Assembly: GCA_035776735.1 (NCBI GenBank)
Contig: DASSSO010000033.1
Span: 582 to 64,581 of the forward strand
Length of the DNA: 64,000 nt
Source: Gaiellaceae bacterium
Lineage (GTDB): Bacteria > Actinomycetota > Thermoleophilia > Gaiellales > Gaiellaceae
Direction of reading: 5' to 3'
Shown here: positions 11,790 through 31,157 of the stretch, piece after piece
Numbering within the stretch: position 1 is the stretch's first letter
Layout: each line of letters opens with the position of its first letter
Position numbers and translations under genes: made by a program
The notes under the pieces: generated by a model
The model's database searches: none
What the model saw: the letters and a program-made list of their open reading frames with translations, nothing else
What the model was told of the DNA's origin: nothing

Positions 11790-11852
11790 CCCAGCCGGGC
11801 GGCGCGTTAGCCTGATCGGAACATTTCGTTGACCCGAAAGGACATTCAGTAG

Positions 11853-15487: not shown

Positions 15488-16858
15488 ATGGCGCGCTGCT
15501 GCGACGAGTTCTCGCGGTCCTCGCTCCTCCGGCGCGCCGTCGCCGAGGCGGGCTCGGGCCTGCCGGCGGTCGAGCCCGGGATGCCGATCCCGGCGGGAAC
15601 CGGCCTCGACCGGCGCGAGCTCCTGCTCCGGTCTGCAGGACTGGCCCTCGCCGTCTACGGCGCCGGGTCGCTCTCGCTGCCGGGGTTCGAGGACGGGATC
15701 CTCGAGGCCGCTCACGCCGCGCCCGCGCAGCCGGTGCTCGTCAGCGTCTTCCTCGACGGCGGCGTGGACTCGCTCTCGATGCTCGCGCCGGTCGCCGACC
15801 CCGACTACCGGCGGCTCCGTCCGCGCCTCGCCATGCCCGACTCCGCGCTCGTGTTCAGCGAGGACGCGCGGCTGCGCTGGCATCCCGAGGCGGCGGCGTT
15901 CCGGACGCTCCACCTCGAGGGCAAGCTGACCGTGTTGCCGACCGTCGGCTACACGAACGCCGACCAGTCGCACTTCACCTCCCGTCACTACTGGGAGGTC
16001 GGGGCGACGAATCCCGGGCTCCGCACGGGCTGGCTGGGGCGGTATCTCGACCGGGCCGGGAGCGCGAGCAACCCGCTCCAGGGGCTGAGCCTGGACGGCG
16101 AGCTGGCGCCGCCGCTCGCGACCCGGAAGGCGCCGGTGGCCGCGCTCCGCGGCGCCGGCAACTACCGCTTCTGGTCGCCCGGAGTCTGGGGCGAGGTCGA
16201 GCGGGAGATGCTGAAGACGCTCGGGCCGCTCGGCGGCGCCGCCGGCCGGCGCGGCAAGGCGCTCGCCTCGGTCGCCGGGATCGCCAAGCAGGCACAGACG
16301 CTCCGGCAGCAGCTCGCCCCCTTCGGCGGCAAGATCGCGAGCCCCGTTCCCTACCCCACACACCGGAGCAGCTTCCCGCAGCGGCTGGCCGGCCTGGCCG
16401 CGATGCTCGGTGCGGGGCTGCCGCTCCGCTGCGTCGCGCTCCGCGCGTACGGGATGTACGACACCCACGACGACCAGGCCGAGCCGCTCGCGCAGGGGCT
16501 CAAGCTGACGGGCGAGAGCCTGCTCGCATTCCAGCGGGACCTGGAGGCGCGGGGTCTCGCCGACCGCGTTCTGACGCTCGTCTGGTCGGAGTTCGGCCGC
16601 CGCGGCCAGGAGAACGGCTCACGCGGGACCGACCACGGCGCGGCCGGCATCGGGATGGTGATGGGCGCACGGGCTCGCGGGCAGATGATCGGAGAGCTGC
16701 CGCCGCTGCGAAGCGCGCTCGACCGGCAGGGGAACCTGAAGGCGACGGTCGACTTCCGCAGCGTGTATTCGTCCCTGCTCGAGCAGTGGTTCGACTTCGA
16801 CGGCGCCGGCGCGATCCCGAATGCACGGGCCTTCGGTCGGCTCCAGCTCGTCAAGTGA
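15488..16858 (+). CDS. DUF1501 family protein (sulfatase-like fold, Tat-type leader)
   Basis: RRELLLRSAGLALAVYGAG Tat-like leader. DSL, GYTNADQSHF and SEFGRR..ENGSRGTDHG blocks of DUF1501. It is the typical partner of DUF1800. Confidence 0.85.
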   Translation: MARCCDEFSRSSLLRRAVAEAGSGLPAVEPGMPIPAGTGLDRRELLLRSAGLALAVYGAGSLSLPGFEDGILEAAHAAPAQPVLVSVFLDGGVDSLSMLAPVADPDYRRLRPRLAMPDSALVFSEDARLRWHPEAAAFRTLHLEGKLTVLPTVGYTNADQSHFTSRHYWEVGATNPGLRTGWLGRYLDRAGSASNPLQGLSLDGELAPPLATRKAPVAALRGAGNYRFWSPGVWGEVEREMLKTLGPLGGAAGRRGKALASVAGIAKQAQTLRQQLAPFGGKIASPVPYPTHRSSFPQRLAGLAAMLGAGLPLRCVALRAYGMYDTHDDQAEPLAQGLKLTGESLLAFQRDLEARGLADRVLTLVWSEFGRRGQENGSRGTDHGAAGIGMVMGARARGQMIGELPPLRSALDRQGNLKATVDFRSVYSSLLEQWFDFDGAGAIPNARAFGRLQLVK

Positions 16859-17217
16859 GACGTCTCGCGCTCCTCGCGCTGACGGCCCTGGCGATCCCCG
16901 CCGCCGCACACCCCGTGCTCGACGCGCGCGCGCCTGCCCGCGTCCAGGTGACGGCGCTCGAGTTCGAGTACCGGCTCTCGCGCCTGACCGTGCGGCAGGG
17001 GGCGGCGCTGATCGAGCTCGTCAACTACGGTGAGGACGAGCACGACCTCTTCGTCCGCCGCATCGGCGGGACGAAGACCTGGCGCGTCAGGACGATCCTC
17101 CCGGGCGAGCGCGCGACGCTCTCGATCCGGCTCCGCCCCGGCCGCTACCGCCTCTGGTGCGCGGTCGCCGACCACCGCTCGCGCGGCATGCGCGCGACGC
17201 TCCGCGTCAGGCGCTGA
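16855..17217 (+). CDS. small secreted cupredoxin-like protein
   Basis: The GTG overlaps the DUF1501 TGA (GTGA). Signal peptide LALLALTALAIPAAA. A beta-rich domain ends in YRLWCAVADHRSRGM, a Cys/His/Met-type pattern. Copper binding is inferred only. Confidence 0.5.
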   Translation: MRRLALLALTALAIPAAAHPVLDARAPARVQVTALEFEYRLSRLTVRQGAALIELVNYGEDEHDLFVRRIGGTKTWRVRTILPGERATLSIRLRPGRYRLWCAVADHRSRGMRATLRVRR

Positions 17218-17222
17218 AAGGG

Positions 17223-17250
17223 CGGACGGCGGGGCTGAGCCCGCCGTCCG
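17223..17250. terminator. 11-bp GC hairpin between convergent genes (possible bidirectional terminator)
   Basis: cggacggcggg-gctgag-cccgccgtccg. There is no clear U-tract. Confidence 0.45.
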
Positions 17251-17260
17251 AGTCAAGTCG

Positions 17261-17701
17261 TCAGTACGCGCGAGCCGACGTGGTCTCGTCGCGATCCCAG
17301 TTCGCCAGAGCCCAGATGATCGCGATGTCGAGCGCGATGATCAGCACGGCCCAGACCGGGTAGTACGGAATGAAGAAGAAGTTCGCGATCGCACTGATGA
17401 CCGCGAGCGTCATCCCGACGACCCTGGCCCAGGTGGCACCCGTGAGGATGCCCCACCCGGCGAAGAACACGACGACGCCGAGCACGAGCTGGATCCAGCC
17501 CCACGCGGTCACGTCGACGTCGAAGACGTAGTTCGACGTCACGACGAAGAACTCGTCCTCGAAGAGCGCGGCGATACCTGCGATCCCGTGGAAGAAGCCC
17601 ACGATCATCATCACCACTGCAGCGAAGGCCCCGAGGCCCGTCACCCAGCCGCTCTCGGCGCGCGTCGCGTGCGCGGTCCGGTGCTCACTCATGGTCGCCA
17701 T
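17261..17701 (-). CDS. conserved 4-TM membrane protein (function unknown)
   Basis: ATG 17701 is preceded by GGAAGGAGGTGA. Hydrophobic segments WVTGLGAFAAVVMMIVGFFHGIAGIAALF, WIQLVLGVVVFFAGWGIL, VVGMTLAVISAIANFFFI and VWAVLIIALDIAIIWAL. Confidence 0.7.
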   Translation of the reverse strand: MATMSEHRTAHATRAESGWVTGLGAFAAVVMMIVGFFHGIAGIAALFEDEFFVVTSNYVFDVDVTAWGWIQLVLGVVVFFAGWGILTGATWARVVGMTLAVISAIANFFFIPYYPVWAVLIIALDIAIIWALANWDRDETTSARAY

Positions 17702-18022
17702 CCCTGTCACCTCCTTCCTCCCCGAGTGTCGAACAGGGGCCTCGACGACGCATCGGTGTTTCCCCGGACCAGGATGCGGCCTGGTACCGATGCACCGCGA
17801 TCGCACTCCCGGGCGGCTAGCTCAGCGGTTCAGGAGCGGCGGGCGGTGGCGCCAGAAGCGCCGCGCGACCAGCGTGGCGGCGAGCACGACCAGGCCGAAC
17901 TCGCGGATCTTCCCCCACGCCCTGCGGGGCAGCGACTCGTGGCGTCGAAAACGGATGTGACGAATGGCGTTCATCTCGACGATCGTCCCCGACGCGGCTA
18001 CGGACGCCATCGGGGATCCCGC

Positions 18023-18934
18023 TCAATCGGCCTGCGAGGAACTACGGAGGCGCGCCGGCCCCGCCTCCAGCTCGGCGACGATGTCGTCCGAGAGCCTCGG
18101 CCAGGCCTCGAGGGCCCAGTCGCCGAACTCGAGGTCGGTGAGACACGCGACCGCGAGCTCACGCTCGGGGTCGACCCAAAGGAAGGTGCCGCTGCCTCCG
18201 AAATGCCCGAACGTCCGGGTCGACTGCCGCTCGCCGGTCCAGTGCCCCGGTTTTCGGTCCCGCAGCTCGAAGCCGAGCCCCCAGTCGTTCGGGTCGAAGC
18301 GGCCGACGCCCGGGATCACGCCCCCGAGCCCTGGGAACTGGACGGAGGTGGCCTCGCCGAGCGTCTCCGGCGCGACGACCATCGGATCGAGCAGCTCGCG
18401 CCCGAGCCGGAGTGCCTCGTCCAGCGTCCCGTGCACGCCCGACCCCGCGGAGCCCTCGAGCCGTGCCTGCAGGCCGAGCGGCTCGAACACCGCCTCGCGG
18501 AGGTAGTCGCCGAACGCGATCTCGGCCCTCGCCTCGACGAATTCGGCGAGGACGTCGAAGCCCGAGTTCGAGTAGATCCGGCGCGTCTGGGGCCGCGCGA
18601 TCGGCTCGCGACCCTCGAAGGGGAGCCCCGAGGCGTGCGCGAGCAGGTGGCGGACGGTCGAGCCGGGCGGGCCGGCCGGCTCGTCGAGGTCGACCGTTCC
18701 CTCCTCCGCGGCGACGAGGATCGCGAGCGCGGTCACGAGCTTCGTGACCGACGCCCAGCGGAACTCGCGGCCGGTCGGGCCGTGGGTCGCGAGGACTCGT
18801 CCTTCCAGGACGACGCCGGCGGCGGCGTTGTCGGCCTGCCACTCGTCCACCTGGCGCAGGGCATCCACGGCGGCGGATACTAGGCGCGTGCCCCACCGCC
18901 GCATCCCTGGCCACTCGCCGTTCGAGGCCGTCAT
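18023..18934 (-). CDS. serine hydrolase / beta-lactamase-family protein
   Basis: S-x-x-K motif ASVTKL. HLLAHASGL. The start could instead be 18904 or GTG 18868, which would remove the overlap with the divergent RidA gene. Confidence 0.8.
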   Translation of the reverse strand: MTASNGEWPGMRRWGTRLVSAAVDALRQVDEWQADNAAAGVVLEGRVLATHGPTGREFRWASVTKLVTALAILVAAEEGTVDLDEPAGPPGSTVRHLLAHASGLPFEGREPIARPQTRRIYSNSGFDVLAEFVEARAEIAFGDYLREAVFEPLGLQARLEGSAGSGVHGTLDEALRLGRELLDPMVVAPETLGEATSVQFPGLGGVIPGVGRFDPNDWGLGFELRDRKPGHWTGERQSTRTFGHFGGSGTFLWVDPERELAVACLTDLEFGDWALEAWPRLSDDIVAELEAGPARLRSSSQAD

Positions 18935-19283
18935 GGGGTACGCACGCGCGGTCGTGGCGGGAGACCACGTGTACGTCGCCGGGACGGCTCCGATCCCGCC
19001 GGACGGCGCCGACCCGCCCCAGGGCGCCTACGAGCAGACGCGGCTCTGTCTCGAGATCATCTCCGGGGCGCTGGAGCGGGCCGGCTCGAGCCTGCAGGAC
19101 GTCGTCCGCACGTGCGTCTACCTCGTCGACCCCGCCGCCTTCGACGAGATGGCGCGGGCGCACGGCGAGGTGTTCGCCGAGATCCGTCCCGTGAACACGA
19201 CGGTGACGATCGCCGGCCTCGTCGACCCGCGCTGGCTCTTGGAGATCGATGCGGTCGCCGTGCTGCAGACTGAGGCACCGTGA
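18888..19283 (+). CDS. RidA/YjgF-family protein
   Basis: SPFEAVMGYARAVVAGDHVYVAGT, and TCVYLVD...F..M..A....F....P..T. The GTG 18888 start restores the family N-terminus. ATG 18933 is the alternative. Confidence 0.7.
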   Translation: MPHRRIPGHSPFEAVMGYARAVVAGDHVYVAGTAPIPPDGADPPQGAYEQTRLCLEIISGALERAGSSLQDVVRTCVYLVDPAAFDEMARAHGEVFAEIRPVNTTVTIAGLVDPRWLLEIDAVAVLQTEAP

Positions 19284-20464
19284 AGCAGGTCTTCCCGCCG
19301 TCCATCACCGGCGTCGAGGGCGCTGAGCCTGCCGGCAGCGTGCTCGACCACAAGTTCGGGCAGGGCGAGCAGTACACGCTCGGCGTCGAGGAGGAGTACA
19401 TGCTCCTCGACGCCGAGAGCTTCGACCTCGTCCAACGGGTCGACACGATCCTCGCCGCGTTCGTGGGCCACGAGGAGGAGGCGCGGATGAAGCCGGAGCT
19501 CATGCAGTCGACGCTCGAGGTCGCGACGCCCGTCTGCCGGAACGCCGGCGAGGCGGACCACGCGCTCCGTCGCCTGCGCTCGGCCGTGAGGGACAGCGCC
19601 ACGGCGAACGGGCTTCGCATGGGCTCGGCTGGAACGCACCCGTTCAGCCTCTTCGAGCGGCAGCGGATCACGGCGCGGGACCGGTACCGGACGCTCGTCG
19701 ACCAGATGCAGTACGTCGCCCGCCGCGAGCTGATCTTCGGGCTCCACGTGCACGTCGCGGTGGACCACCCGGACAAGGCGATCCACGTCGTGAACGGGGT
19801 CCTGAACGACCTGCCGCTGCTGCTCGCCCTGTCCGCGAGCTCGCCCTTCTGGCGCGGCGAGCCGACCGGGCTCGCGTCGACGCGCCAGCCGATCTTCGCG
19901 GCCTTCCCGCGCTCTGGCCCGCCGCCGCGCTTTCGCGACTACGCCGAGTACGCCGAGGTCGTGGGGCAGCTCGAGAAGACCGGCTGCATCGCGGACTACA
20001 CACACATCTGGTGGGACATCCGCCCGCACCCGCGGCTCGGGACGGTCGAGATCCGAATCTGCGACTGCGTGACGCGCGTCGAGGACGCTGTCGCGATCGC
20101 GGCGCTCTGCCAGGCGCTCGTGAAGTACTACTGCGAGCTCGCGGAGAGCGACGGCGTCCCCAGCTACCACCGCGTCCTGACCACCGAGAACAAGTGGCTC
20201 GCGGTCCGGTACGGGCTGGAGGCGCCGGTGATGGACCTGCGGACCGGAAACCGGAACCGGGTGCCCGTGGCCCAACTCGCGCGCAAGCGGCTCGCCGATT
20301 TGGAGCCGCACGCGCGGGAGCTCGGCTCGGAGCGCGAGCTCGAGGGCATCCGAGACATCCTCCGTCGCGGCAACGGCGCCGACCGCCAGCTGCGCGTCTA
20401 CAACGCGAACCGCGACATCGTCGAGGTGGCGCGGGAGATCGCCGAGGCCACGGAAACCATCTAG
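19280..20464 (+). CDS. ybdK: carboxylate-amine ligase, YbdK/GCS2 family
   Basis: YTLGVEEEYMLLD, STLEVATPVC, GTHPF, LIFGLHVHV, SSPFW and IWWDIRPHPRLGTVEIRICD. The start overlaps the RidA stop (GTGA). Confidence 0.85.
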   Translation: MKQVFPPSITGVEGAEPAGSVLDHKFGQGEQYTLGVEEEYMLLDAESFDLVQRVDTILAAFVGHEEEARMKPELMQSTLEVATPVCRNAGEADHALRRLRSAVRDSATANGLRMGSAGTHPFSLFERQRITARDRYRTLVDQMQYVARRELIFGLHVHVAVDHPDKAIHVVNGVLNDLPLLLALSASSPFWRGEPTGLASTRQPIFAAFPRSGPPPRFRDYAEYAEVVGQLEKTGCIADYTHIWWDIRPHPRLGTVEIRICDCVTRVEDAVAIAALCQALVKYYCELAESDGVPSYHRVLTTENKWLAVRYGLEAPVMDLRTGNRNRVPVAQLARKRLADLEPHARELGSERELEGIRDILRRGNGADRQLRVYNANRDIVEVAREIAEATETI

Positions 20465-20622
20465 GAGGGGCTCGGCGCCGGGTCGGGGCAGGCCTCTTCC
20501 CCGGCAGGATGAATCAGACTCCGTCCATGAGGCCTCGATTCGCCAGGGACCTCGGCGAGCCCGATCCGCGTACATCGGGCGATGGACCTCTGCGGCGGAG
20601 CCGCTCGTATAGCAGGCGCGCC

Positions 20623-21165
20623 ATGGCCGCGCTTCAAGCCGACGAGCGCGCCTGGATCCGGGGCGCCCAGACGGGCTCGCTGCCCGACCTCGAGGCGCTG
20701 TTCCGCGACCACTGGCCACGCGCATACCGCACCGCCTATCTCGTCGTCCACGACGGCGCGGCTGCGGAGGACATCGCGCAGGAGTCCTTCCTGGCGGCGA
20801 TCCGGACGCTCGACCGGTTCGACCGCCGCCGGCCGTTCGGGCCCTGGCTGCACCGGATCGTCGTCAACCGGGCGATCGACTGGGCCCGCGCGAGGACGCT
20901 GCGGGCGGAGGTCGGCGAGCCCGCGCTCGAGCTCGCTGTGGACGCTCCGCCGGAAGGCGCGCCCTACTCGCAGCCGGTGCTCGCGGCGCTCGGCGAGCTC
21001 TCGCCGGAGCACCGGGCGGTGATCGTGCTCCGCCACCTGCTCGAGTACACGCCGGGCGAGATCGCGCGGATGCTCGACCTTCCGCGCGGAACCGTGAACT
21101 CGCGGCTGCGGCGCGGGCTGGACGAGCTGGCGGACCTGCTCGAGGTCGACGAGGACACGCTGTGA
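20623..21165 (+). CDS. ECF-type RNA polymerase sigma factor
   Basis: Region 2 (AEDIAQESFLAAIRTLDRFD...PFGPWLHRIVVNRAIDWAR) and region 4 (EHRAVIVLRHLLEYTPGEIARMLDLPRGTVNSRLRRG). Confidence 0.85.
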   Translation: MAALQADERAWIRGAQTGSLPDLEALFRDHWPRAYRTAYLVVHDGAAAEDIAQESFLAAIRTLDRFDRRRPFGPWLHRIVVNRAIDWARARTLRAEVGEPALELAVDAPPEGAPYSQPVLAALGELSPEHRAVIVLRHLLEYTPGEIARMLDLPRGTVNSRLRRGLDELADLLEVDEDTL

Positions 21166-22349
21166 ACGAGCGCGAGCTCCGCAGGGCCCTGCTCGGCATC
21201 CAGCCGCCCGACGAGCTCGGCGCGCAGCGCCGCTCGTGGCAGCTGGCGCGCGCGGCCTTCGACGACCGGGAGCCGGCGCCCTGGCCCAGGCGCCACGCGC
21301 GCGCGCTCGTCGCCGCCGCGGCCGGGATCGCGCTGGTGGCCGCGGTGCTCAGCCCGCCGGGCCGGGCGAGGATCGACGACGTCCGGGAGGCGATCGGGAC
21401 GGAGAAGGTCGTAGGCGTCTCCCCGGCGAGACCGGCGCTCTTCTCGCTGCCGGCGGCCGGCCGACTGCTCGTCGTCGCGCCGACGGGCGCCTGGGTCCTC
21501 GACGCCGACGGGTCCAAGCGCCGGCTCGGCGACTACGACCAGGCCTCGTGGTCGCCGAACGGGCTCCACGTGGTCGCCTCGACGCGGAGCCAGCTCGTCG
21601 CCGTCCGCCCGAGCGGCGAGGTGCGCTGGACGCTGGCCCGGCCGCGAGTCCACGACGCCCGCTGGTCGCCGAGCGGGTTCCGGATCGCGTACCTGAGCGG
21701 CTCGAACCTCCGGCTCGTCGCCGGCGACAGGACGGGCGACCGGCGGGTCGACGGCGCCTCGACCGTTGCGCCGGCCTGGCGGCCGGGGCAGCAGCACGTC
21801 CTCGCCTACGTCACCCCGGCCGGGCGGCTCAGGGTCGTCGACACGGACGCCGACCGAACGGTCTGGAGCGCGCCGGTGCGGGCGGTTCCGGCCCACGTCG
21901 AGTGGTCCGCGGACGGAACCCGGCTCCTCGCCGTCGTCCCGCTCTCGCCGAGCCGGTTCGCGCTGACCGTGTACGACGCGTCCGGCCGCCGGCTGCAGTC
22001 GCTCCCGCTGCCCGGTGCGTTCCGGGATGCCGCCTTCGCGCCCGAGGGCCACCGGCTCGCGCTCGCCCGGAGCCACGAGGAGCGGAGCGAGCTGCTCATC
22101 GTCGACGCCGACCTGCTGCGGCAGCAGGAGCCCGTCTTCCAAGGCAAGGGTGTCTTCAGCGACGTCACCTGGGCGCCGGGTGGACGCTGGCTCCTGCTCG
22201 GCTGGGAGAGCGCCGACCAGTGGCTCTTCGTCCGCTCGACGGACGTCGAGAAGATCAAGGCGGTCTCGAGCCTCGCCGTGCAGTTCGACCCGGGCGGGGA
22301 CGGCGCAGGCGAGTTCCCGCGGGTCGAAGGCTGGTGCTGCGCACAGTAG
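21162..22349 (+). CDS. probable anti-sigma factor: single TM segment plus extracytoplasmic TolB-like beta-propeller
   Basis: Its start overlaps the sigma gene stop (GTGA). TM segment ALVAAAAGIALVAAVL. Repeated WSP.G motifs (WSPNGLHVVAS, ARWSPSGFRIAYLSG, VEWSADGTRLLAV, FAPEGHRLALA, VTWAPGGRWLLLG). Confidence 0.65.
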   Translation: MNERELRRALLGIQPPDELGAQRRSWQLARAAFDDREPAPWPRRHARALVAAAAGIALVAAVLSPPGRARIDDVREAIGTEKVVGVSPARPALFSLPAAGRLLVVAPTGAWVLDADGSKRRLGDYDQASWSPNGLHVVASTRSQLVAVRPSGEVRWTLARPRVHDARWSPSGFRIAYLSGSNLRLVAGDRTGDRRVDGASTVAPAWRPGQQHVLAYVTPAGRLRVVDTDADRTVWSAPVRAVPAHVEWSADGTRLLAVVPLSPSRFALTVYDASGRRLQSLPLPGAFRDAAFAPEGHRLALARSHEERSELLIVDADLLRQQEPVFQGKGVFSDVTWAPGGRWLLLGWESADQWLFVRSTDVEKIKAVSSLAVQFDPGGDGAGEFPRVEGWCCAQ

Positions 22350-22359
22350 GCTCCGGACG

Positions 22360-22830
22360 GTGCTGGCGGCCGGCGACCGCATTCCCGACGTGCAGGTGTG
22401 GCTCGCGCCCAGAGAGGGCGTCTCGCTTCACGACCTCGTCTCCGAGGGCCCGATCCTCCTCCTCTTCTACCTCTTCGACTGGTCGGGCACCTGAACGAAC
22501 GAGATGGAGCTCCTGCGTGACAGGAGCCGGGAGTTCGAGGAGGCGGGAGTCCGGATCATGGCGGCGTCGCGCGACTCCGCCTGGTCGCACGTGGCCTGGA
22601 TCCAGGCGCTCGACCTGACCTTCCCGCTGCTCTCGGACTGGAACGGCGACGCGGTTCGCGGCTTCGGGGTCGCGCAGGACTACCGGGGGATGAGCGACGT
22701 CGCCCAGCGGTCCGCGTTCCTCGTCGACACCGGCGGTACGGTCCGCGGCGCATGGGCCTACGAGGACGGCGACGTTCCGGACGTGGACGAGCTGCTCGCG
22801 GCCGCGCGGGCCTTGTCGGCCTCGTCCTAG
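22360..22830 (+). CDS. Bcp/AhpC-TSA-type peroxiredoxin with in-frame UGA (22492-22494) at the peroxidatic Cys position; probable selenocysteine
   Basis: Track ORFs 22015..22494 and 22504..22830 share one frame. The joined product is ...PILLLFYLFDWSGT-U-TNEMELLRDRSREFEEAGVRIMAASRDSAWSHVAWIQALDLTFPLLSDWNGDAVRGFGV...RSAFLVDTGGTVR, a full Prx fold signature. GTG 22360 is a tentative start. Confidence 0.6.
22496..22537 (+). promoter_or_regulatory. candidate bacterial SECIS hairpin downstream of UGA 22492-22494
   Basis: Lower stem cgaac (22496-22500)/gttcg (22533-22537). Upper stem gctcctg (22509-22515)/caggagc (22521-22527). Apical loop CGUGA starts 21 nt after the UGA and contains GU. Confidence 0.45.
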
Positions 22831-24320
22831 TCCTCTACCTCGGCGCCGGCCTCGTCTCGACGTGGCCCGCGCTCCGCGACGCGCGCGCGGACTTCCTCGC
22901 GGAGGGGTTGCCCGGGCGTCCAGGGGCGGCGCAGCCCGGCGACCACCTGCAGACGGCCTGGCAGCTCTGGCTTCCCGGGCACCAGCTCCGGCGAGGAGAA
23001 GCGCCGTGGCTCGACCCGTACAGCTTCCAGCCCCAGGTCGACCCGCGGGTCAACTTCGCCGGCTGGCCGTTCGGCGCCGTCTTCGGGCCGCTGAAGGGCC
23101 TGCTCGGCGTGGTCGCCGCCTGGAACGTCTTCGTGCTGCTCGGCTACCTCGGCTGCGGCGCGCTGGCGTTCCTGTGGCTGCGCTCGATCGGGCTCGGCGT
23201 CGGGGCGGCGCTCGTGGGAGGTCTCGTCTTCGCGCTCGCGCCGTACCGTGCCGTGCAGGCGGGCGCCGGCCACCTCCTCGCCTGGATCTCGATGTTCCTG
23301 CCGCTCTCGCTCTGGGCCTGGGAGCGGCGCTGGTACTGGCTCACCGCAGCGGCTCTCGCGTCGATTCCGCTGTCGGGCCAGGTGCATCTCGCCCTCGGCG
23401 CGATTCCGTTCGTCACCGCGTACGCGCTGTTGCGGGGCGGCGACCGGCGCTGGGCCGGCGGGGCGGCGGCCGGCGCCGTCGGCGCCGGTCTCTTGGTCTG
23501 GGCGCTCTCGATCCGGGGCTCGATCGGGACCTCCCGCTCCTTCGCCTCGGTCGAGCGCTACTCGGCCGAGCTCGCGGACTTCGTCTCGCGCGACCCGCGC
23601 CACGGCCTCGAGCCGTTCGTCTTCGTCGGCTGGCTCGTGCCGCTCCTGGCGCTCCTGGGGCTTGTGTTTCATGTGACGAGGCTCACCGTCTTCCTCGCCT
23701 GCTCGGCGCTCGCCGCCTGCCTCCTGGCGCTCGGAGCCAATCTTCCGGGCTACGAGACGGCGTGGGAGGCCCTGCCCGGGCTGGGGAGCACCCGCGTCCC
23801 GGGGAGGCTGATGCCGATCGCCTGCCTGGCGATCGCCGCCCTTGCCGCGTTCGGCGCGCAGGAAACGGCTCGTCACATGAAACACAAGCTCGCGGGGGCC
23901 GCCGTCGCCGCAGTGGTGCTCGCGCTCGTCGCGATCGACCTGCGGATCGATGTGACCGCCTACCGGCCGACGGCCGCGGACGAGGGGAACCGGGCCTACG
24001 CGGCACTCGGGCAGCAGGGCGGCGGCCGACTGCTCGAGATGCCGGTGCACACGCCGGACCGCCACGAGGGGAGCGTCTACCTCTACTACGCGATGCAGGC
24101 GCCGCGCGAGCGCCCGGCCGGCTACTCGACCGTCGCACCGAGGGAGGCGGCCCGCGTCCTACGCGAGCTGCAGCCCTGCGCGGACGCGCGGCATCTCGCC
24201 GAGCTCGGCGTCCGGTACCTCGCCGTCCACGGACGCCCGCGCTGCGGCGTCGGCGGCCGGCTGCTCGCCCGCGACGGGCCCGTCGCGCTCTACGAGGCCT
24301 ACATCCCCGTAGGCTGGTAG
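22752..24320 (+). CDS. large polytopic membrane protein (possibly GT-C-like glycosyltransferase; function unknown)
   Basis: More than 10 hydrophobic segments. ATG 22752 is the only canonical start before the first TM segment, giving a 79-nt overlap with the peroxiredoxin gene. The family assignment is only a guess from architecture. Confidence 0.6.
   Translation: MGLRGRRRSGRGRAARGRAGLVGLVLVLYLGAGLVSTWPALRDARADFLAEGLPGRPGAAQPGDHLQTAWQLWLPGHQLRRGEAPWLDPYSFQPQVDPRVNFAGWPFGAVFGPLKGLLGVVAAWNVFVLLGYLGCGALAFLWLRSIGLGVGAALVGGLVFALAPYRAVQAGAGHLLAWISMFLPLSLWAWERRWYWLTAAALASIPLSGQVHLALGAIPFVTAYALLRGGDRRWAGGAAAGAVGAGLLVWALSIRGSIGTSRSFASVERYSAELADFVSRDPRHGLEPFVFVGWLVPLLALLGLVFHVTRLTVFLACSALAACLLALGANLPGYETAWEALPGLGSTRVPGRLMPIACLAIAALAAFGAQETARHMKHKLAGAAVAAVVLALVAIDLRIDVTAYRPTAADEGNRAYAALGQQGGGRLLEMPVHTPDRHEGSVYLYYAMQAPRERPAGYSTVAPREAARVLRELQPCADARHLAELGVRYLAVHGRPRCGVGGRLLARDGPVALYEAYIPVGW
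23660..23680. repeat. left arm of a perfect 21-bp inverted repeat inside the membrane-protein CDS
   Basis: gcttgtgtttcatgtgacgag, markedly AT-richer than its surroundings. Exact reverse complement of 23869-23889. Confidence 0.9.
23869..23889. repeat. right arm of the perfect 21-bp inverted repeat
   Basis: ctcgtcacatgaaacacaagc. A 188-nt spacer separates it from the left arm. Confidence 0.9.
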
Positions 24321-24322
24321 CC

Positions 24323-24634
24323 GTGGAGCTGGAGAGCTACACGTTCGTCCTCCTCCGGCGGGGCCCCCGAGCGGACGAGTTCGGCGAGAGCGAGCTGGCG
24401 GAGCTCCAGGCCGGGCATCTCGCGTTCCTCGATCGGATGCGGAACGAGGGCCACCTGCGGCTCTCGGGGCCCTTCCGAGGCCAGGAGGACGAGACGAAGC
24501 GCGGTTTCTGCCTCTACCGGACGAGCGTGGACGAGACGAGGCGGCTGATCGCCGAGGGCGATCCGTCGGTGCGCGCCGGCCGGATGGCGGTCGAGGCGAT
24601 GACATGGCTGACGCCGAAGGGAGCGTTCGGCTGA
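24323..24634 (+). CDS. YciI-like family protein
   Basis: GTG start 3 nt after the upstream TAG. YTFVLLRRGP......EL..LQAGHLAFL..M...G.L.LSGPF fits the YCII-related domain. Confidence 0.65.
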   Translation: MELESYTFVLLRRGPRADEFGESELAELQAGHLAFLDRMRNEGHLRLSGPFRGQEDETKRGFCLYRTSVDETRRLIAEGDPSVRAGRMAVEAMTWLTPKGAFG

Positions 24635-25263
24635 GTGACGACCGGCTCGTGCGGGGCGACGACGGCGTCACCCGCTGCTTCTGGGGCGCCTCGCCGCCGG
24701 AGTACCAGGCGTACCACGACGCCGAGTGGGGCTTCCCCGTCGACGACGACCGGCGCCTGTTCGAGAAGCTCGTCCTCGAGGGCTTCCAGTCCGGGCTCTC
24801 CTGGCTGACGATCCTCCGCAAGCGCGAGAACTTCCGCAACGCCTTCGCCGGTTTCGACTTCGAGCAGATGGCGCGGTTCGGCGAAAAGGACGTCGAGCGG
24901 CTGCTCGGCGACGCCGGGATCGTCCGACACCGCGGGAAGATCGAGGCTGCGATCAACAACGCGCAGCGGGCGGTCGAGCTCGTCGCCGAGGAGGGCTCGC
25001 TGGCCACCTACGTCTGGCGCTTCGAGCCCGACCCGAAGTCTCGGCCGAAGCGGCCCACCTGGGACGAGCTGCTGGAGCTGGCCGAGACGCCGGAGTCCCG
25101 CGCGCTCGCGAAGGATCTGAAGCGCCGCGGCTGGCGCTTCGTCGGCCCGACGACGGTTTATGCCTTCATGCAGGCGATGGGCCTCGTCAACGACCACTTG
25201 CACGGCTGCGACGCGCGCGAGCACGCCGAGCTGGCGCGGGCCGAGTTCGACCGCCCGGCCTAG
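24604..25263 (+). CDS. tag: DNA-3-methyladenine glycosylase I
   Basis: RCFWG....Y..YHD.EWG.P, LFE.L.LEGFQSGLSWLTIL.KRE.FR.AF, GIVRHR.KI and FVGPTT.YAFMQA.G.VNDH. Confidence 0.9.
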   Translation: MADAEGSVRLSDDRLVRGDDGVTRCFWGASPPEYQAYHDAEWGFPVDDDRRLFEKLVLEGFQSGLSWLTILRKRENFRNAFAGFDFEQMARFGEKDVERLLGDAGIVRHRGKIEAAINNAQRAVELVAEEGSLATYVWRFEPDPKSRPKRPTWDELLELAETPESRALAKDLKRRGWRFVGPTTVYAFMQAMGLVNDHLHGCDAREHAELARAEFDRPA

Positions 25264-26043
25264 CTACATGCCCATCGAGTGGTAGCCGCTGTCGACGTAC
25301 AGCGTCGTCGCCGTCACGTTGTCCGCCTCGTCCGAGAGCAGGTACGCGGCCGCGGCGCCCACGTCGTCCGCGTCGATCGGCCGGTGGAGCGGCGAGCGCT
25401 CCTCGACGATCGACTCCATCGTCGGAAAGCCGGCGATCGAGCGGGCGGCCAGCGTGCGCACCGGGCCGGCGGAGATCGCGTTCACGCGGATGTTCTTCTG
25501 CCCGAGGTCCCAGGCCAGGTACTGGACGGACGAGTCGAGCGCGGACTTGGCCACGCCCATGACGTTGTAGTGCGGCACCGCCCGCTGCCCGCCGAGGTAC
25601 GTCATGGTCAGGATCGAGCCGCCCCCGGCCGCCTCCATCAGCGGCTCCGCCGCGCGTGCGAGGGCGACGAGCGAATAGGCGCTCACGTCAAGAGCCATCC
25701 AGAACCGGTCGCGCGGCGTATCGGTGAAGCGGCCCTCGAGATCCTCGGCGGCCGCGAAGGCGACCGAGTGGACGAGGAGGTCGAGCCCGCCGTCGAACGT
25801 CTCCCCCACGTCGCGCAAGACGCGGTCGACGTCCTCGTCCGACCGGACGTCGCACGCGGTGACAAGCGGGCTGGAGACCGACTCGGCGAGCTCGCGGACG
25901 TTCTTCTCGATCCGCTCGCCCTGGTAGGTGAAGGCGAGCTGCGCACCCTCCTCGGCCAACCTGCGGCCGATCGCCCACGCGATCGAGCGCTTGTTCGCGA
26001 CACCGGTGACGAGCCCGCGCTTGCCCTCGAATCTCCCAGGCAT
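25264..26043 (-). CDS. fabI: enoyl-[acyl-carrier-protein] reductase (NADH)
   Basis: GKRGLVTGVANKRSIAWAI, HSVAFA, Y..MGVAKSALD and IRVNAISAGPVRTLAA. Confidence 0.9.
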   Translation of the reverse strand: MPGRFEGKRGLVTGVANKRSIAWAIGRRLAEEGAQLAFTYQGERIEKNVRELAESVSSPLVTACDVRSDEDVDRVLRDVGETFDGGLDLLVHSVAFAAAEDLEGRFTDTPRDRFWMALDVSAYSLVALARAAEPLMEAAGGGSILTMTYLGGQRAVPHYNVMGVAKSALDSSVQYLAWDLGQKNIRVNAISAGPVRTLAARSIAGFPTMESIVEERSPLHRPIDADDVGAAAAYLLSDEADNVTATTLYVDSGYHSMGM

Positions 26044-26060
26044 CGAGGCGATCCTACGGT

Positions 26061-29000
26061 GTGACTACTCTGTACGTCTTGCGCCGCCAGCTCTTGCTCT
26101 TGGTCCCGATGGCGGCGCTTGCGCTCGCAGCGCCGGCCTCTGCCGCGCTCCGCCCGATCGAGCGGACGTTCGGCGACATCACGGTCCCGCGCGTCTCGAA
26201 GGGGACGCTCCGCGTCTCCGCGGCGCAGGGATCGGGGCGGATGACCGTGATCGCGACGCTGAGGCTCCCGCCGCTCGCGGCCGCGCGCGGCCCGGGCTTC
26301 TTCGCCACCCTCGGCCCGAGCCGGCTCGACACGGCCAGCGCATCGTCGCGCTCCTACCTCGCGCGCGTGCAGGCCGAGCAGGCCGCCGCGGCCCGCGCGA
26401 TCCGCACCGCCGTCCCCGGGGCGCGGCTCGTCCACCGGTTCCAGGTCGTGCTGAACGGGATCACCGTCGAGCTCCCGGTGGCGGACCTCCCGAAGCTCCA
26501 GGCGCTCAGCTCCGTCGCCCGCGTCTACCCGAGCGTGCGCCACTTCCTGAAGACGAACCGAAGCCCCGGCGTGATCGGCGCGACCGCGTTCACGGCGGGG
26601 ACGGGCGCGACCGGCGCCGGCGTCAAGATCGCGGTCGTCGACGACGGGATCGACCAGACGAACCCGTCCTTCAGCCCGGGCGGGTTCGCGTATCCGCCCG
26701 GCTTTCCGAAGGGGCAGACCGCCTACACGACGCCGAAGGTGATCGTGGCCCGCAGCTTCACCGCGCGCGGCTCCGGCACCCGCGGTCGCCTCCCCGTCGA
26801 CTCGCGCGTCTCCTTCCACGGGACCCACGTCGCGGGCATCGCCGCCGGCCGCGCCGGAACCGCCTCCCCGGGCGGCCGCGACCACCCCCCGACGGCGGGA
26901 CTGAGCGGCGTGGCGCCGAACGCCTGGATCGGGAACTATCGCGTCTTCAACGTCCCGACCCCGGCCGGGCACATCTCGACGACGGGACAGACCGTCGCCG
27001 CCTTCGAGCAGGCCGTCCGCGACGGAATGGACGTCATCAACTACTCCGGCGGCTCGCCCGCGATCGACCCGCGCACGGACGCGATGATGGAGACGGTCGC
27101 GAACGTCACGCGCGCCGGTGTCGTCGTCGTCGCCTCCGCCGGGAACGACCGCGACGACTTCGGCCTCGGCTCGACCGGCTCGCCGTCCACCTCGCCGGAG
27201 GCGATCGGCGTCGCGGCCACGTCCAACACGCACGTGTTCGCGCCTGCACTCGCCGTCAGCGATCCCGGCGCCCCGGCGTCCGTCCGGCGGATCCCGTTCA
27301 AGCCGGACGCCCTCGGCGCGCCCTCGTCCTGGGGGCAGACCGACCGGTCGCTCGTCGACGTCGGCTCGATCACAGGGACGAACGGCCAGCCCGTACCGAC
27401 GCAGCTCTGCGGAATCGGGCGCGATCCCAACGCCGGAACCAACCCGCTGCCGCGCGGGTCGCTCGCCGGCTCGTTCGCGCTGATCTCCCGCGGCCGCTGC
27501 AGCATCTTCTCCAAGGCGGCCCGTGCGGCCGCGGCGGGCGCGGCGGGCCTCGTGATCGTCGACAACCGCTTCGGCGAGGCGAACCCGATCCCGCTCCTAG
27601 TCTCCGTGCGCGCCGGGATGATCTCCGACCTCGACGGCGCGAACTTGCGCGCGTACCTCGCGACGCGAGGAGGCCGCGCACCGATTCGCATCGGGCCGGG
27701 GGTCACCGAGATCGAGACCGGGCGGAGCGGGATCATCACGAGCTTCTCCGCCGGCGGCCCGACCGCATTCGGCCACAACCTGAAGCCGGACCTCGCCGCG
27801 CCGGGCGGCGAGATCCTCTCTGCGACCCTCCCCGGGTTCACGGGCGGCTCACGGTTCGCCAACTTCGACGGGACGAGCATGTCGGCGCCGCATGTCACCG
27901 GCGCGGTCGCGCTCCTCCGCGAACGGCACCGTGAGTGGACGGTGCGGCAGGTGAAGTCCGCGCTGATGTCGACTGCCGTTGCGGCGTGGGGCAACAGCGC
28001 GCGGACGCAGGAGGCCCCGGTGCTCCTGCAGGGCGCCGGCCTCGTCAACGTGCAGGCCGCCGACGACCCGAAGATCTTCGCGGAGCCCGGGTCGCTCTCA
28101 TTCGGAGACCTCAACCTGGTCGCCGCAGTCACCTCGAAGCAGCTCCTGCTCTCGATCCGGGACGCCGGCGGCGGCGGCGGCACGTGGACAGTCGAGCTCC
28201 GGCCGCAGTCCGCGTCGGCCGGCGCGACCATCGAGGTTCCTTCGAGCGTCACGATCCCGCCCGGAGGCGCGTCAGACGTCCAGGTGACCGCGCGCGCCGA
28301 CGGCGGGGCGCCGAAGGGCGACAACTACGGCTTCGTCGTACTCCGGCAGGGCGCCGTCACGCGCCGGGTGCCCTACGCGTTCTTCCTCACGCGGCCGGGG
28401 CTCGCGGGCGTCACCGCCCGTCCGCTCGCGCGCGTCCAGACCGGCACGACCGCGTCGGGAACGTCGTTCGCCGACCGCTACCGGTTCCCCGCGGCGCCCT
28501 TCGGCCACCCACCGGATTACGGCGCCGGCCCGGACATGGTGGAGGACGGCGCCGAGCGGCTGTACTCGATCCGGGTCCGGAACCGGGTCGTCAACGTCGG
28601 CGCGGCCGTGATCACCTCGTCGCCCAACTCGGCGATCGACCCGTTCTTCCTCGGCGCCAAGGACGAGAACGCGGTTCAGGGCTACGTCGGGACGCCGACG
28701 AACATCAACGGGCTGACGATCGGCTACGGGCTCGCGATCGGGGCGGCCGGCGCGGTCTTCGCCCCCCCGGGCACGTACTACGTCGCCGTGGACTCCGGCC
28801 GTGACGAGTTCACGAATCAGCGGCGGGCGGGCAGCTACCGCCTGCGCTCGTGGGTCAACGACATGCATCCGCCGTCGGTGCGGCTCCTGACGACCCGGGT
28901 CACGGCCGGCCGGCCGACGCTCGCGGTTCAGACGCTCGACCGCGGGGCGGGCGTCGACCCGTTCTCCCTGACCCTAGGCTACGGGCGCGTCCTGGTCGCG

Positions 29001-29468
29001 GCGGCCGCCTACGACCCGTTCTCCGGGGTCGCGATCTTCGCGCTTCCCCCGGCGGCGCCGGCCATCCGCGCCGGCAGGCTGAACGCGCTCTTCCAGTCCG
29101 CGGACTACCAGGAGGCAAAGAACGCGGACGTCTTCGGGGACGAGCTGATGCCGAACACGCGCGTGAAGGCCACGCGGGTCCGGGTCGTCTCCGGCCCGAC
29201 GCTGACGTGGCTGCTGCCGCTCCCGCGGACCTGCGTCGCCCGGACCGTGCCGCTGCTCGTCGTGGCGAGCCCACCGGCGAAGGCCCGCACCGCACGGTTC
29301 TTCGACGGCAAGCGGCAGATCCGCGTGCTGCGCCGCAACGCCGCCGGCCTGTACGCGACCACTTGGCGGACGGCCGGTGCCAAGCGCGGCGCGCACACGC
29401 TCCGCGCGGTCGTACAGGTGGCCGGCAAGCGCGTCGAGGCGACGCGCGTCGTCCGCGTGTGCCGGTAG
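26061..29468 (+). CDS. secreted S8 (subtilisin-family) serine peptidase with PA-like insert and C-terminal beta-rich domains
   Basis: Signal peptide. Catalytic blocks VAVVDDGID (Asp), HGTHVAGIAAG (His) and GTSMSAPHVTGAVALL (Ser). Confidence 0.85.
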   Translation: MTTLYVLRRQLLLLVPMAALALAAPASAALRPIERTFGDITVPRVSKGTLRVSAAQGSGRMTVIATLRLPPLAAARGPGFFATLGPSRLDTASASSRSYLARVQAEQAAAARAIRTAVPGARLVHRFQVVLNGITVELPVADLPKLQALSSVARVYPSVRHFLKTNRSPGVIGATAFTAGTGATGAGVKIAVVDDGIDQTNPSFSPGGFAYPPGFPKGQTAYTTPKVIVARSFTARGSGTRGRLPVDSRVSFHGTHVAGIAAGRAGTASPGGRDHPPTAGLSGVAPNAWIGNYRVFNVPTPAGHISTTGQTVAAFEQAVRDGMDVINYSGGSPAIDPRTDAMMETVANVTRAGVVVVASAGNDRDDFGLGSTGSPSTSPEAIGVAATSNTHVFAPALAVSDPGAPASVRRIPFKPDALGAPSSWGQTDRSLVDVGSITGTNGQPVPTQLCGIGRDPNAGTNPLPRGSLAGSFALISRGRCSIFSKAARAAAAGAAGLVIVDNRFGEANPIPLLVSVRAGMISDLDGANLRAYLATRGGRAPIRIGPGVTEIETGRSGIITSFSAGGPTAFGHNLKPDLAAPGGEILSATLPGFTGGSRFANFDGTSMSAPHVTGAVALLRERHREWTVRQVKSALMSTAVAAWGNSARTQEAPVLLQGAGLVNVQAADDPKIFAEPGSLSFGDLNLVAAVTSKQLLLSIRDAGGGGGTWTVELRPQSASAGATIEVPSSVTIPPGGASDVQVTARADGGAPKGDNYGFVVLRQGAVTRRVPYAFFLTRPGLAGVTARPLARVQTGTTASGTSFADRYRFPAAPFGHPPDYGAGPDMVEDGAERLYSIRVRNRVVNVGAAVITSSPNSAIDPFFLGAKDENAVQGYVGTPTNINGLTIGYGLAIGAAGAVFAPPGTYYVAVDSGRDEFTNQRRAGSYRLRSWVNDMHPPSVRLLTTRVTAGRPTLAVQTLDRGAGVDPFSLTLGYGRVLVAAAAYDPFSGVAIFALPPAAPAIRAGRLNALFQSADYQEAKNADVFGDELMPNTRVKATRVRVVSGPTLTWLLPLPRTCVARTVPLLVVASPPAKARTARFFDGKRQIRVLRRNAAGLYATTWRTAGAKRGAHTLRAVVQVAGKRVEATRVVRVCR

Positions 29469-30220
29469 CGGTCGTCACCGGCGGCAGCTCGGGGATCGGC
29501 GCGGCCGTCGCACGACGTCTCCGGCAGCGCGGCTGGGACTGCGTGCTCGTGGCGCGCGACGAAGAGCGGCTCCGCGCGACCGCGGAGGAGCTCGGGGCCG
29601 AGTACGAGGTCTGCGACGTCGGCGACCGCGAGGCCGTCGACCGGATGGCCGCCGCCGTCCGCGAGCGGCATCCGGCGGTCAAGCTGCTCGTCAACAACGC
29701 CGGCATCTCCGGGCGGACGCCGGGCGACCGGCGCCGGAAGGGCTTCATCGAGACCGACCCCGAGTGGATCGAGGAGCTCTTCCGGGTCAACCTTCTCGGC
29801 GCCGTCTGGTGCCTGCGCGCCTTTCTCCCCGCGCTCGATGCGGCCCGGCCCGCGCACGTCGTGAACGTGGGCTCGGTTGCCGGCACCGTCGCCGTCCCGC
29901 CGGGGCTGTACTCGGCGACGAAGCACGCGCTGGTCGCCTTCTCCCGCTCGCTCGCGGCGTCGCTGCCCGCCCGGGGGATCCACGTCCACACGGTCAATCC
30001 GGGATTCGTGGAGACGCCCGGTTTCCCGCAGCGCGGCGTCCTCGGGAGTTGGCTGCTGGAAGCCGCGGTCGTGGGCCCGGACTACGCGGCCCGCAGGATC
30101 GTCTCCGCCGTGGAGCACAACCGCCCGGAGGTCTTCGTGCCCGGCTGGTACCGGGTGCCCGCGGTCCTGCAGGCGCTCGCGCCGGGACTCGTCAGCCGCC
30201 TGCTGGCACGGCGGCGGTAA
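29459..30220 (+). CDS. short-chain dehydrogenase/reductase (SDR)
   Basis: VAVVTGGSSGIGAAV, NNAG and YSATKHAL. The GTG start overlaps the S8 gene end by 10 nt. Confidence 0.85.
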   Translation: MPVAVVTGGSSGIGAAVARRLRQRGWDCVLVARDEERLRATAEELGAEYEVCDVGDREAVDRMAAAVRERHPAVKLLVNNAGISGRTPGDRRRKGFIETDPEWIEELFRVNLLGAVWCLRAFLPALDAARPAHVVNVGSVAGTVAVPPGLYSATKHALVAFSRSLAASLPARGIHVHTVNPGFVETPGFPQRGVLGSWLLEAAVVGPDYAARRIVSAVEHNRPEVFVPGWYRVPAVLQALAPGLVSRLLARRR

Positions 30221-30230
30221 CTTCCCTCTC

Positions 30231-30533
30231 GTGACCGTCGAGCTCTTCTACTGGGAGGGCTGCCCGTCGTACCCGGAGGCACGCGAGCTGCTCGAGGACG
30301 TCCTCCGGGAACGCGGCCTCGACGTGCCGATCGACCTCCGGCACGTCGGTACGCGCGAGGAGGCGGCCGAGCTGCGCTTCCCCGGCTCGCCGACGATCCG
30401 GGTCGACGGGCGCGACGTCGACCCGGCCGGCGCCGACGAGCCTCCCTCGCTCAGCTGCCGGATCTACCACCTGCCCGACGGTCGCGTCTCGCCGATCCCG
30501 TCCCGCGAACAGCTCGAGGAGGCCCTCGCATGA
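30231..30533 (+). CDS. small thioredoxin/glutaredoxin-fold protein
   Basis: VELFYWEGCPSYPEA...GSPTIRVDG pattern. 100 aa with a GTG start. Confidence 0.55.
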   Translation: MTVELFYWEGCPSYPEARELLEDVLRERGLDVPIDLRHVGTREEAAELRFPGSPTIRVDGRDVDPAGADEPPSLSCRIYHLPDGRVSPIPSREQLEEALA

Positions 30534-31060
30534 GCCTGACGCTCGCCACAGAGGCACCGCCGTTCGACCTTCCCGGCGTCGACGGCCGCAACCACTCGCT
30601 CGACGACTACGCCGACGCGCCGATCCTGGCCGTGGTCTGGTCGTGCAACCACTGTCCGTACGTGATCGCCTGGGAAGGGCGGATGAAGGCGCTCCAGGAG
30701 GAGTACGGCGACCGGGGCTTCCGGCTCGTCGCGATCAACTCGAACGACGCCGAGAACTACCCGGCCGACTCGTTCGAGGCGATGCAGGCGCGGGCGCGGG
30801 AGCAGGGCTTCAACTTCGACTACCTGTACGACGAGGACCAGTCCGTCGCGCAGGCGTACGGGCCGGAGCGGACGCCCGAGGTGTTCCTCTTCGACCGCAA
30901 CCGGAGGCTCGTCTACCACGGCGCCATCGACGACAGCCGCGAGGAGGGCGCCGTGCAGGAGCGTTACGTGCGCGACGCCATCGAGGCGCTGCTCACGGAC
31001 CGGGACCCGCCGGTGGCCGAGACCCCGCCCGTCGGCTGCACGGTGAAGTGGAAGGGCTGA
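30530..31060 (+). CDS. thioredoxin-fold (redoxin/TlpA-like) protein with a CNHCP motif
   Basis: APPFDLPGVDG......D......AVVWSCNHCPYV, RLVAINSND and TPEVFLFD. The start overlaps the upstream stop (ATGA). Confidence 0.75.
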   Translation: MSLTLATEAPPFDLPGVDGRNHSLDDYADAPILAVVWSCNHCPYVIAWEGRMKALQEEYGDRGFRLVAINSNDAENYPADSFEAMQARAREQGFNFDYLYDEDQSVAQAYGPERTPEVFLFDRNRRLVYHGAIDDSREEGAVQERYVRDAIEALLTDRDPPVAETPPVGCTVKWKG

Positions 31061-31157
31061 GCGCGACGCGCGCCGAGTGGTCGTAGTCCAGGCGCACCCG
31101 GCCTCCTCCCCGCTGCGAGCCTACTGAGAAGGCCCGCACGCGTGTGAAACGAGTGCG

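Follow-up and report, generated by a model that had tools for sequence, protein, structure and literature searches.

Peroxiredoxins in which selenocysteine (Sec) takes the place of the peroxidatic cysteine in a T/SxxU motif belong to the commoner selenoprotein families of bacteria, with 91 proteins recorded from 78 organisms (PMC5029168; also PMC1794560 and PMC13188914), and a 2006 survey placed the Actinobacteria among the three phyla rich in selenoprotein families (PMC1794560). Here we describe a candidate of this kind encoded at positions 22360-22830 of a 64,000-nucleotide stretch of DNA from the Gaiellaceae bacterium assembly GCA_035776735.1 (contig DASSSO010000033.1, positions 582-64,581 of the forward strand), which is referred to below as the window and on which all coordinates of the locus are based. 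A preliminary description of the window, made from its letters, had proposed that a UGA codon splitting a peroxiredoxin gene in two is read as Sec and gives a 1-Sec peroxiredoxin, and had noted that peroxiredoxin-like selenoproteins occur in some bacteria. Based on the conservation of the UGA, selection on the hairpin that follows it and the Sec-decoding genes of related genomes, all of which support that proposal, we consider it very probable that the region is a single 1-Sec peroxiredoxin gene of the BCP/AhpE-like branch of the AhpC/TSA family, with Sec inserted by means of SelB and the hairpin.

The prototype of the bacterial Sec-containing peroxiredoxins is PrxU of Eubacterium acidaminophilum, with which the Gaiellaceae protein would share the AhpC/TSA fold, the replacement of the peroxidatic Cys by Sec in T/S-x-x-U and an in-frame hairpin of the bacterial Sec insertion sequence (bSECIS) type immediately past the UGA. 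It is nevertheless not a PrxU orthologue: it scores 38.8 bits against the PrxU equivalog model NCBIfam NF040737, whose cutoff is 270, it is a Cys-free protein of 156 residues from the short BCP/AhpE-like branch, and its motif is L-x3-S-x2-U as opposed to P-x3-T-x2-U. The hosts also differ, being Gaiellales of aerobic soil in the present case and anaerobic Clostridia or Deltaproteobacteria in the case of the described Sec peroxiredoxins. The closest solved structures are those of Mycobacterium tuberculosis AhpE (Rv2238c) and the archaeal Bcp proteins (1xxu, 2cx3 and 3hjp), which align over the full length with E = 1e-13 to 1e-18 and are of similar size; AhpE, moreover, is actinobacterial and a 1-Cys enzyme without a resolving Cys. 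In contrast to the Gaiellaceae protein these enzymes use Cys, retain the canonical Pro of the motif and have no SECIS, and identity to them is low. We place the protein in the BCP/AhpE-like branch as a whole.

Two further systems are instructive. The peroxiredoxin-like thiol:disulfide oxidoreductase selenoproteins with UxxC or UxxU motifs have a PF00578-related thioredoxin fold and were predicted by the same comparative logic. Whereas those proteins have a UxxC redox pair, the Gaiellaceae motif is U-T-N-E without a partner Cys, which suggests a peroxidase-type site rather than one for disulfide exchange. At the RNA level, the SECIS-SelB systems of Escherichia coli fdhF and of Moorella likewise use a stem-loop that is part of the reading frame and lies immediately 3' of the UGA, with an apical G-U in the 16-37 nt range. 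Their sequences are unrelated to that of the Gaiellaceae element, a predicted SelB target in which the loop CGUGA sits on a GC-rich stem of 6-7 bp with no bulged U evident.

A peroxiredoxin reading frame interrupted once by UGA

The open reading frames (ORFs) 22015..22494 and 22504..22830 lie in one frame, with only the TGA and the sense codons ACG, AAC and GAG between them and an ATG at 22504, and this agrees exactly, in coordinates and in sequence, with the arrangement given in the preliminary description. The preceding gene stops with a TAG at 22347-22349, and the frame that opens with the GTG at 22360 is interrupted once, by the TGA; in many orthologues a stop codon stands three codons upstream of the aligned start (Nlen 47). 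The joined read-through protein of 156 residues has no Cys at all, and G+C at third codon positions (GC3) is 0.93 for the 45 codons that precede the TGA and 0.96 for the 45 that follow, in a window whose overall G+C content is 71.9%. Both the absence of any other Cys and the high GC3 across the UGA had been pointed out before. When the whole 64-kb window was scanned for in-frame TGA codons flanked on both sides by a coding signature (GC3 > 0.88, G+C at second codon positions < 0.58 and no further stop on either side), that of the peroxiredoxin was the sole instance. UGA terminates 20 of the 48 confident high-GC3 ORFs in the window, and we therefore reject a global reassignment of this codon. 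Further selenoprotein genes were also considered as candidates and dismissed, as the few extra in-frame TGA matches in other loci are adjacent genes that share a frame by chance.

For family searches the residue encoded by the UGA was set to Cys in the query. The protein matches the Pfam AhpC-TSA model (PF00578) with 85.5 bits against a cutoff of 26 (E = 3.6e-24), its residues 5-129 covering positions 2-122 of the 124 in the profile, and it also matches Redoxin (E = 1.3e-13). Among PDB sequences, 125 peroxiredoxins match at E < 1e-3, the best being Aeropyrum pernix Bcp (2cx3; E = 1.4e-18, residues 3-152), Sulfolobus Bcp proteins and M. tuberculosis AhpE. The alignment with 2cx3 pairs the UGA with the peroxidatic Cys (wSgtCtnE in the query, fSpvCtkE in 2cx3), with S42-G-T-U45 lying on S-P-V-C in keeping with a T/S-x-x-Cp motif, and full-length homologues have Cys in the same column. 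The UGA thus occupies exactly the peroxidatic position to which it had been assigned at the outset.

Conservation of the UGA among relatives

We then scanned the GTDB species-representative genomes and recovered 69 loci, all from metagenome-assembled genomes (MAGs) of Gaiellaceae, Gaiellales or Thermoleophilia, in which protein identity to the window reaches down to about 55%. The codon at the site is TGA in 66 of these and TGC in two (L031 and L069), while in the remaining, partial locus the site lies outside the sequence; all 65 aligned orthologues have TGA. The comparison with homologues that the preliminary description had suggested for the UGA column consequently returns TGA in the great majority of the GTDB loci and Cys in the full-length homologues. 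Throughout the TGA loci the N-terminal 44 codons and the C-terminal approximately 110 codons keep one frame. Codon differences between the window and 18 close orthologues amount to 192 synonymous and 90 non-synonymous changes upstream of the TGA and to 311 and 215 downstream; based on this synonymous excess and the in-frame halves we conclude that both halves are translated and under purifying selection. The identical sequence is also present in two independent Logan assemblies. As the UGA is kept in 66 orthologous loci from different species, it is the result neither of an assembly error nor of pseudogenization.

The ATG that annotation pipelines use as the start of the downstream half is found in 30 of 64 orthologues, and those without it have their first in-frame start 17 or more codons farther on, or none at all. 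An independently initiated fragment, whose occurrence in close relatives the preliminary description had named as contradicting its proposal, is therefore not a conserved feature. One MAG (JBBDMP01, Gaiellales LejiaB_69_93) has separate copies of the TGA-containing peroxiredoxin on two contigs (L037 at 9727 and L044 at 10133).

A nearly invariant hairpin tied to the UGA

The published bSECIS model specifies a loop of 3-9 nt, an upper stem of 4-16 bp, a spacing of 16-37 nt from the UGA and a minimum free energy (MFE) of at most -7.5 kcal/mol, with a G within the first two loop positions that is usually followed by G or U (PMC13188914). The hairpin downstream of the UGA satisfies every one of these constraints, having a 5-nt loop in which G at the second position precedes U, an upper stem of 7 bp, a loop that starts 21 nt past the UGA and an MFE of -10.8 kcal/mol for the core. 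Folding reproduced the two-tier stem, the CGUGA loop and the spacing that had been read from the letters of the window, and the earlier remark that the geometry is that of bacterial SECIS models is upheld.

We accept the hairpin as real because of the comparative data rather than the fold of the single sequence. Across the 65 aligned orthologues codons +6 to +10 after the UGA are almost fixed, as CTC (59/62), CTG (65/65), CGT (64/65), GAC (65/65) and AGG (63/65), and their mean codon entropy is 0.12 bit, compared with 0.89 bit for the conserved residues in the rest of the gene. A different invariant Arg of the protein is encoded by CGC in 47 cases, CGG in 11, CGT in five and CGA and AGG in one each. 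In the alignment used for counts of pairing and covariation (A2, 67 sequences in 62 distinct rows) 94.5% of the upper-stem cells are paired, with slid controls all dropping to 35-44%. Compensatory changes on both sides occur at three upper-stem pairs, GC having become CG in six sequences at one of them and CG having become UA at the other two.

The decisive control is provided by eight natural Cys-form genes (L031 and L196-L202), which encode the same ELxLLRDR peptide and in which the stem codons vary. Their loop Arg codon is CGC in seven cases and CGG in one, so that CGT is present in 66 of 67 TGA forms and in none of the eight Cys forms (Fisher p = 5e-10, uncorrected for phylogeny); the loop CGUGA is distributed in the same manner, in 66 of 67 and none of eight, respectively. 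Mean hairpin energy is -7.2 kcal/mol in the Cys forms versus -11.05 kcal/mol in the TGA forms. The G-U of the loop thus goes with the TGA state, independently of the peptide, and the selection on the hairpin acts at the level of the RNA. One Cys form (L198, positions 1633-1680) retains the whole stem with the loop CGCGA, and the rare AGG codon persists in some of them (L198, L196 and L199). These AGG codons and stem remnants look like relics of a former SECIS, which suggests that Sec-to-Cys conversions have taken place in the family.

Sec-decoding machinery in Gaiellales

In the window ARAGORN and Rfam found tRNA-Pro only, ARAGORN found no tRNA-Sec in 58 orthologous loci, and tblastn with E. 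coli SelA, SelB and SelD gave no match in the window and about 1.1 Mb of Gaiellales flanking sequence. For the MAG of the window the machinery has accordingly to be deduced from relatives. To this end we used a high-GC back-translation of the invariant SelA motif GDKLLGGPQAG, identical in the E. coli and Aquifex SelA structures, as a metagenome query and obtained 120 selA loci. One of them (L152) is nearest to the Gaiellales loci in tetranucleotide composition, a measure that does not resolve clades, and its SelA led to two long contigs encoding homologues that are 93-95% identical to it. The first of these, contig_6789 (1,338,521 bp), is by name and size the contig that holds the TGA-peroxiredoxin locus L055, which is syntenic with window positions 16520-35555 at 69-83% nucleotide identity and hence orthologous. 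The second (2,994,754 bp) is assigned by size alone to chromosome OY969109.1, the holder of the peroxiredoxin locus L059.

In both places (L195 on contig_6789 and L194 on the second contig) we found selA, an O-methyltransferase gene, selB and tRNA-Sec. SelA was recognized by the Pfam model of that name, and SelB has the GTP_EFTU, Beta-barrel_SelB and WHD_3rd_SelB domains in both relatives; the tRNAs have the anticodon UCA according to ARAGORN and match Rfam RF01852 at 66.8 and 62.9 bits. The tRNA of L195, the one whose 3' end was read, ends ...GCCGCTCC-G and so has the discriminator G of canonical tRNA-Sec rather than U73. A second SelA query (L161) retrieved five proteins listed at NCBI as 'L-seryl-tRNA(Sec) selenium transferase [Gaiellaceae bacterium]', and NCBI accession ranges gave no tie between a SelA and the MAG of the window. 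The search for sel genes that the preliminary description had recommended is thus answered in part: selA, selB and tRNA-Sec exist in Gaiellales relatives with the same peroxiredoxin gene, whereas the window has none of them and selD was not found.

The gene order selA, O-methyltransferase, selB, tRNA-Sec is shared by the Gaiellales sel loci (L195 10001-14069; L194 10001-13538 and 18298-18390; L152 9025-13093). A methyltransferase within a sel operon is unusual; this one combines PF08100 and PF00891 in 316 residues and is shortened to 171 residues in L194. A blastn link of one selA locus (L103) to the clade of the window by way of L011 was rejected, as the match falls in a 6.3-kb insertion that is absent from the window. 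This insertion, in a close relative (L011 12898-19219), corresponds to the junction 25256/25257 of the window and lies between collinear blocks of 82-85% identity.

Weighing the alternatives

Several observations weigh against a SECIS-directed Sec codon at this site. Judged by the window sequence alone, the hairpin barely exceeds what chance would give, as the 65-nt RNA 22486-22550 folds with an MFE of -23.3 kcal/mol (z = -1.98) and five of 200 shuffled sequences fold equally well. The lower stem is poorly supported, with 86% of cells paired and little covariation, and RNAalifold keeps six inner pairs of the upper stem and prefers a 3-bp alternative (columns 16-18/49-51) over the lower one; the near-invariance of the element limits the covariation overall. 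No Rfam family matches the hairpin in a scan of the window, and a permissive E-value applied to 22440-22600 gave chance matches only. The 64-kb window and the 10 kb around each of the 69 orthologous loci are devoid of selA, selB, selD and tRNA-Sec, and selD was not located in the Gaiellales sequences examined, with none beside selA in 14 Gaiellales-like sel loci. On the side of the protein, the Pro of the PxxxT/SxxC motif, seven residues ahead of the peroxidatic position, is replaced by Leu38, the residue being Leu in 98% of Sec-form orthologues, and the motif Pro is found only in one Cys-form clade (P0001, P0006 and L031). The Bcp/AhpC-TSA layout recognized in the preliminary description is accordingly borne out as regards family and motif, with the exception of this canonical residue.

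These points have to be set against what the competing explanations would require. It might be argued that the hairpin is no SECIS, being either a by-product of the peptide LLRDR or a SelB-independent stimulator of near-cognate read-through with Trp, Arg or Cys, and the conservation of ELLRDR in Cys forms, the stem still made by one of them (L198) and the marginal significance of the single-sequence fold are all in line with this. However, peptide conservation cannot explain the fixed rare codons CGT and AGG in a genome with a GC3 of about 0.9, nor the linkage of the loop U to the TGA state (66/67 versus 0/8). The geometry and the loop GU, furthermore, fit the SelB-dependent bSECIS model (PMC13188914), the SelB of relatives has the SECIS-binding winged-helix domain, and a protein with Trp or Arg in place of the peroxidatic residue would have no activity, on account of which we regard such a hairpin as very improbable. 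A further alternative is a dead or split gene, in which the TGA would be a true stop, of a pseudogene or arising from an assembly error, and at most a 108-residue C-terminal fragment would be made from the ATG at 22504. NCBI (HEU6444024.1), JGI and other pipelines do call a protein of 105-108 residues from this ATG, and UGA does serve as an ordinary stop elsewhere in the window. Yet such a fragment would be without the beta-strand, the Ser and the catalytic residue, and its start codon, as noted above, is confined to 30 of 64 orthologues and otherwise replaced by a start at least 17 codons downstream or by none. A dead or split gene is also at odds with the recurrence of the TGA in 66 loci of different species, where the two halves share a frame and evolve under purifying selection, and with the identical sequence in two independent assemblies, and we find this explanation scarcely credible.

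The UGA could alternatively be recoded as Cys by a SelC*-type tRNAReC that is charged with Cys and delivered by SelB to the SECIS-marked codon, which would make the product an ordinary 1-Cys peroxiredoxin. In some bacteria tRNAReC and SelB read SECIS-linked UGA as Cys (Vargas-Rodriguez et al. 2018, as cited in PMC13582414), and Sec and Cys at a recoded UGA are indistinguishable by sequence. The tRNA beside selB on the contig of L055, however, has a discriminator G and not the U that defines tRNAReC, the tRNAs of both relatives pass the Rfam threshold for tRNA-Sec, no second Sec-like tRNA turned up among the loci scanned, and selA, which is needed solely for Sec synthesis, is present and conserved. 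We consequently give Cys recoding only a very slim chance and return to Sec insertion at codon 45 as the reading we favor.

Proposed mechanism

We posit that SelB, loaded with Sec-tRNA(Sec), would bind the hairpin that begins 14 nt past the UGA, the apical loop CGUGA offering the G-U that SelB would recognize, and would compete with release factor 2 for codon 45, to which it would deliver Sec. In the resulting full-length protein Sec would be the peroxidatic residue (S-G-T-U-T-N-E), and the active site would further include Ser42 and Arg117. The selenenic acid arising from peroxide reduction would then be recycled by an external thiol reductant in the style of a 1-Cys peroxiredoxin, an external source being required because the protein has no Cys. 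External reduction of the intermediate in 1-Cys enzymes such as AhpE is established peroxiredoxin chemistry. SelB binding, Sec insertion in this organism, the peroxidase activity and the nature of the reductant are in each case predictions from comparative sequence analysis.

Annotation and significance

Searches with the read-through protein return two classes of sequences. The first consists of full-length proteins of 152-160 residues at 55-68% identity, with Cys in the UGA column (...FDWSxTCTNELELLRDR...), and the second of dozens of fragments of 105-108 residues at 82-100% identity, all starting MELLRDR. The 100% match is the NCBI entry HEU6444024.1, 'redoxin domain-containing protein [Gaiellaceae bacterium]', a 108-residue fragment from an 85,835-bp contig, in accordance with the expectation of the preliminary description that annotation would split or miss the gene. 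Public gene calls vary in how they treat the TGA, with one giving Trp and two splicing out the surrounding 11-20 codons (P0047, P0032 and P0044), and the others starting at the internal Met.

Sec-containing peroxiredoxins and the bSECIS mechanism are known already, and in that respect the present finding is useful for annotation and would neither surprise a specialist nor change a concept. What is specific here is a short, Cys-free, BCP/AhpE-like subfamily that has Leu for the motif Pro and is not PrxU, and a near-universal gene that carries one almost invariant SECIS across Gaiellales and is systematically mis-annotated. Going further, we suggest, as a proposition about as likely as not, that these proteins form a distinct L-x3-S-x2-U selenoperoxiredoxin subfamily that is near-universal in Gaiellales (TGA in 66 of the 68 loci covering the site), has no curated model and is mis-annotated in hundreds of MAGs and metagenome contigs. 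If this is the case, the gene might be a main reason why these aerobes keep a Sec-decoding machinery, and its GCS2 neighbor (see below) would indicate a low-molecular-weight thiol as the reductant. Our searches of the literature found no paper that ties Gaiellales to selenocysteine use, only two incidental co-mentions. The locus would place selenium dependence in a globally abundant and largely aerobic order of soil actinobacteria and extend the range of Sec enzymes by a short Cys-free type of peroxiredoxin. Across Gaiellales, where dozens of related records are affected, the annotation could be put right by a family model that has U at position 45, and the near-invariant 19-nt SECIS with its natural Cys-form controls offers a clean system for the study of SelB-SECIS recognition in high-GC Actinomycetota.

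Gene neighborhood and other features

Table 1. Features of the putative Sec-peroxiredoxin gene and its flanking genes (window coordinates)
Feature	Position	Strand	Remarks
Predicted 1-Sec peroxiredoxin coding sequence, complete	22360..22830	+	156 residues; GTG start, in-frame UGA at codon 45, TAG stop (22828-22830)
GTG start codon	22360..22362	+	aligned position opens MLAAGDRIPD in Cys-form homologues
Ser42 codon, T/S of the T/S-x-x-Cp motif	22483..22485	+	matches the Ser in 2cx3 'fSpvC'; 86% of Sec-form orthologues have S
UGA, predicted Sec codon (U45), peroxidatic position	22492..22494	+	Cys column in homologues and 2cx3
Extended putative SECIS, including the weaker lower stem	22496..22537	+	lower stem 22496-22500/22533-22537; in MFE and centroid folds
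Putative SECIS core	22509..22527	+	7-bp upper stem 22509-22515/22521-22527; apical loop CGUGA 22516-22520
Arg117 codon, conserved peroxiredoxin active-site Arg	22708..22710	+	invariant in alignments A1 and A3; on the Arg of 'AkRavF' in 2cx3
GCS2 (glutamate-cysteine ligase family 2) homologue	19274-20464		
Extracytoplasmic function (ECF) sigma factor	20623-21165		
Beta-propeller protein	21162-22349		395 residues
Protein with no Pfam match	22908-24320		470 residues
YCII protein	24323-24634		

In the window the Sec-peroxiredoxin gene comes after those for GCS2, the ECF sigma factor and the beta-propeller protein, in this order (Table 1). The Cys-form homologues P0005, P0011, P0022 and P0025, by comparison, directly follow GCS2, and one Cys form shares the sigma factor and propeller context of the window. 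The position of Cys-form peroxiredoxins directly after GCS2 indicates that the linkage of GCS2 and peroxiredoxin is older than the sigma factor and propeller pair, and the neighborhood as a whole hints at a thiol-redox or stress context for the Sec form. Farther upstream, the window has two very long ORFs of high GC3 at 3209-8173 and 8694-12155, both on the minus strand, which would encode about 1654 and 1153 residues, respectively.

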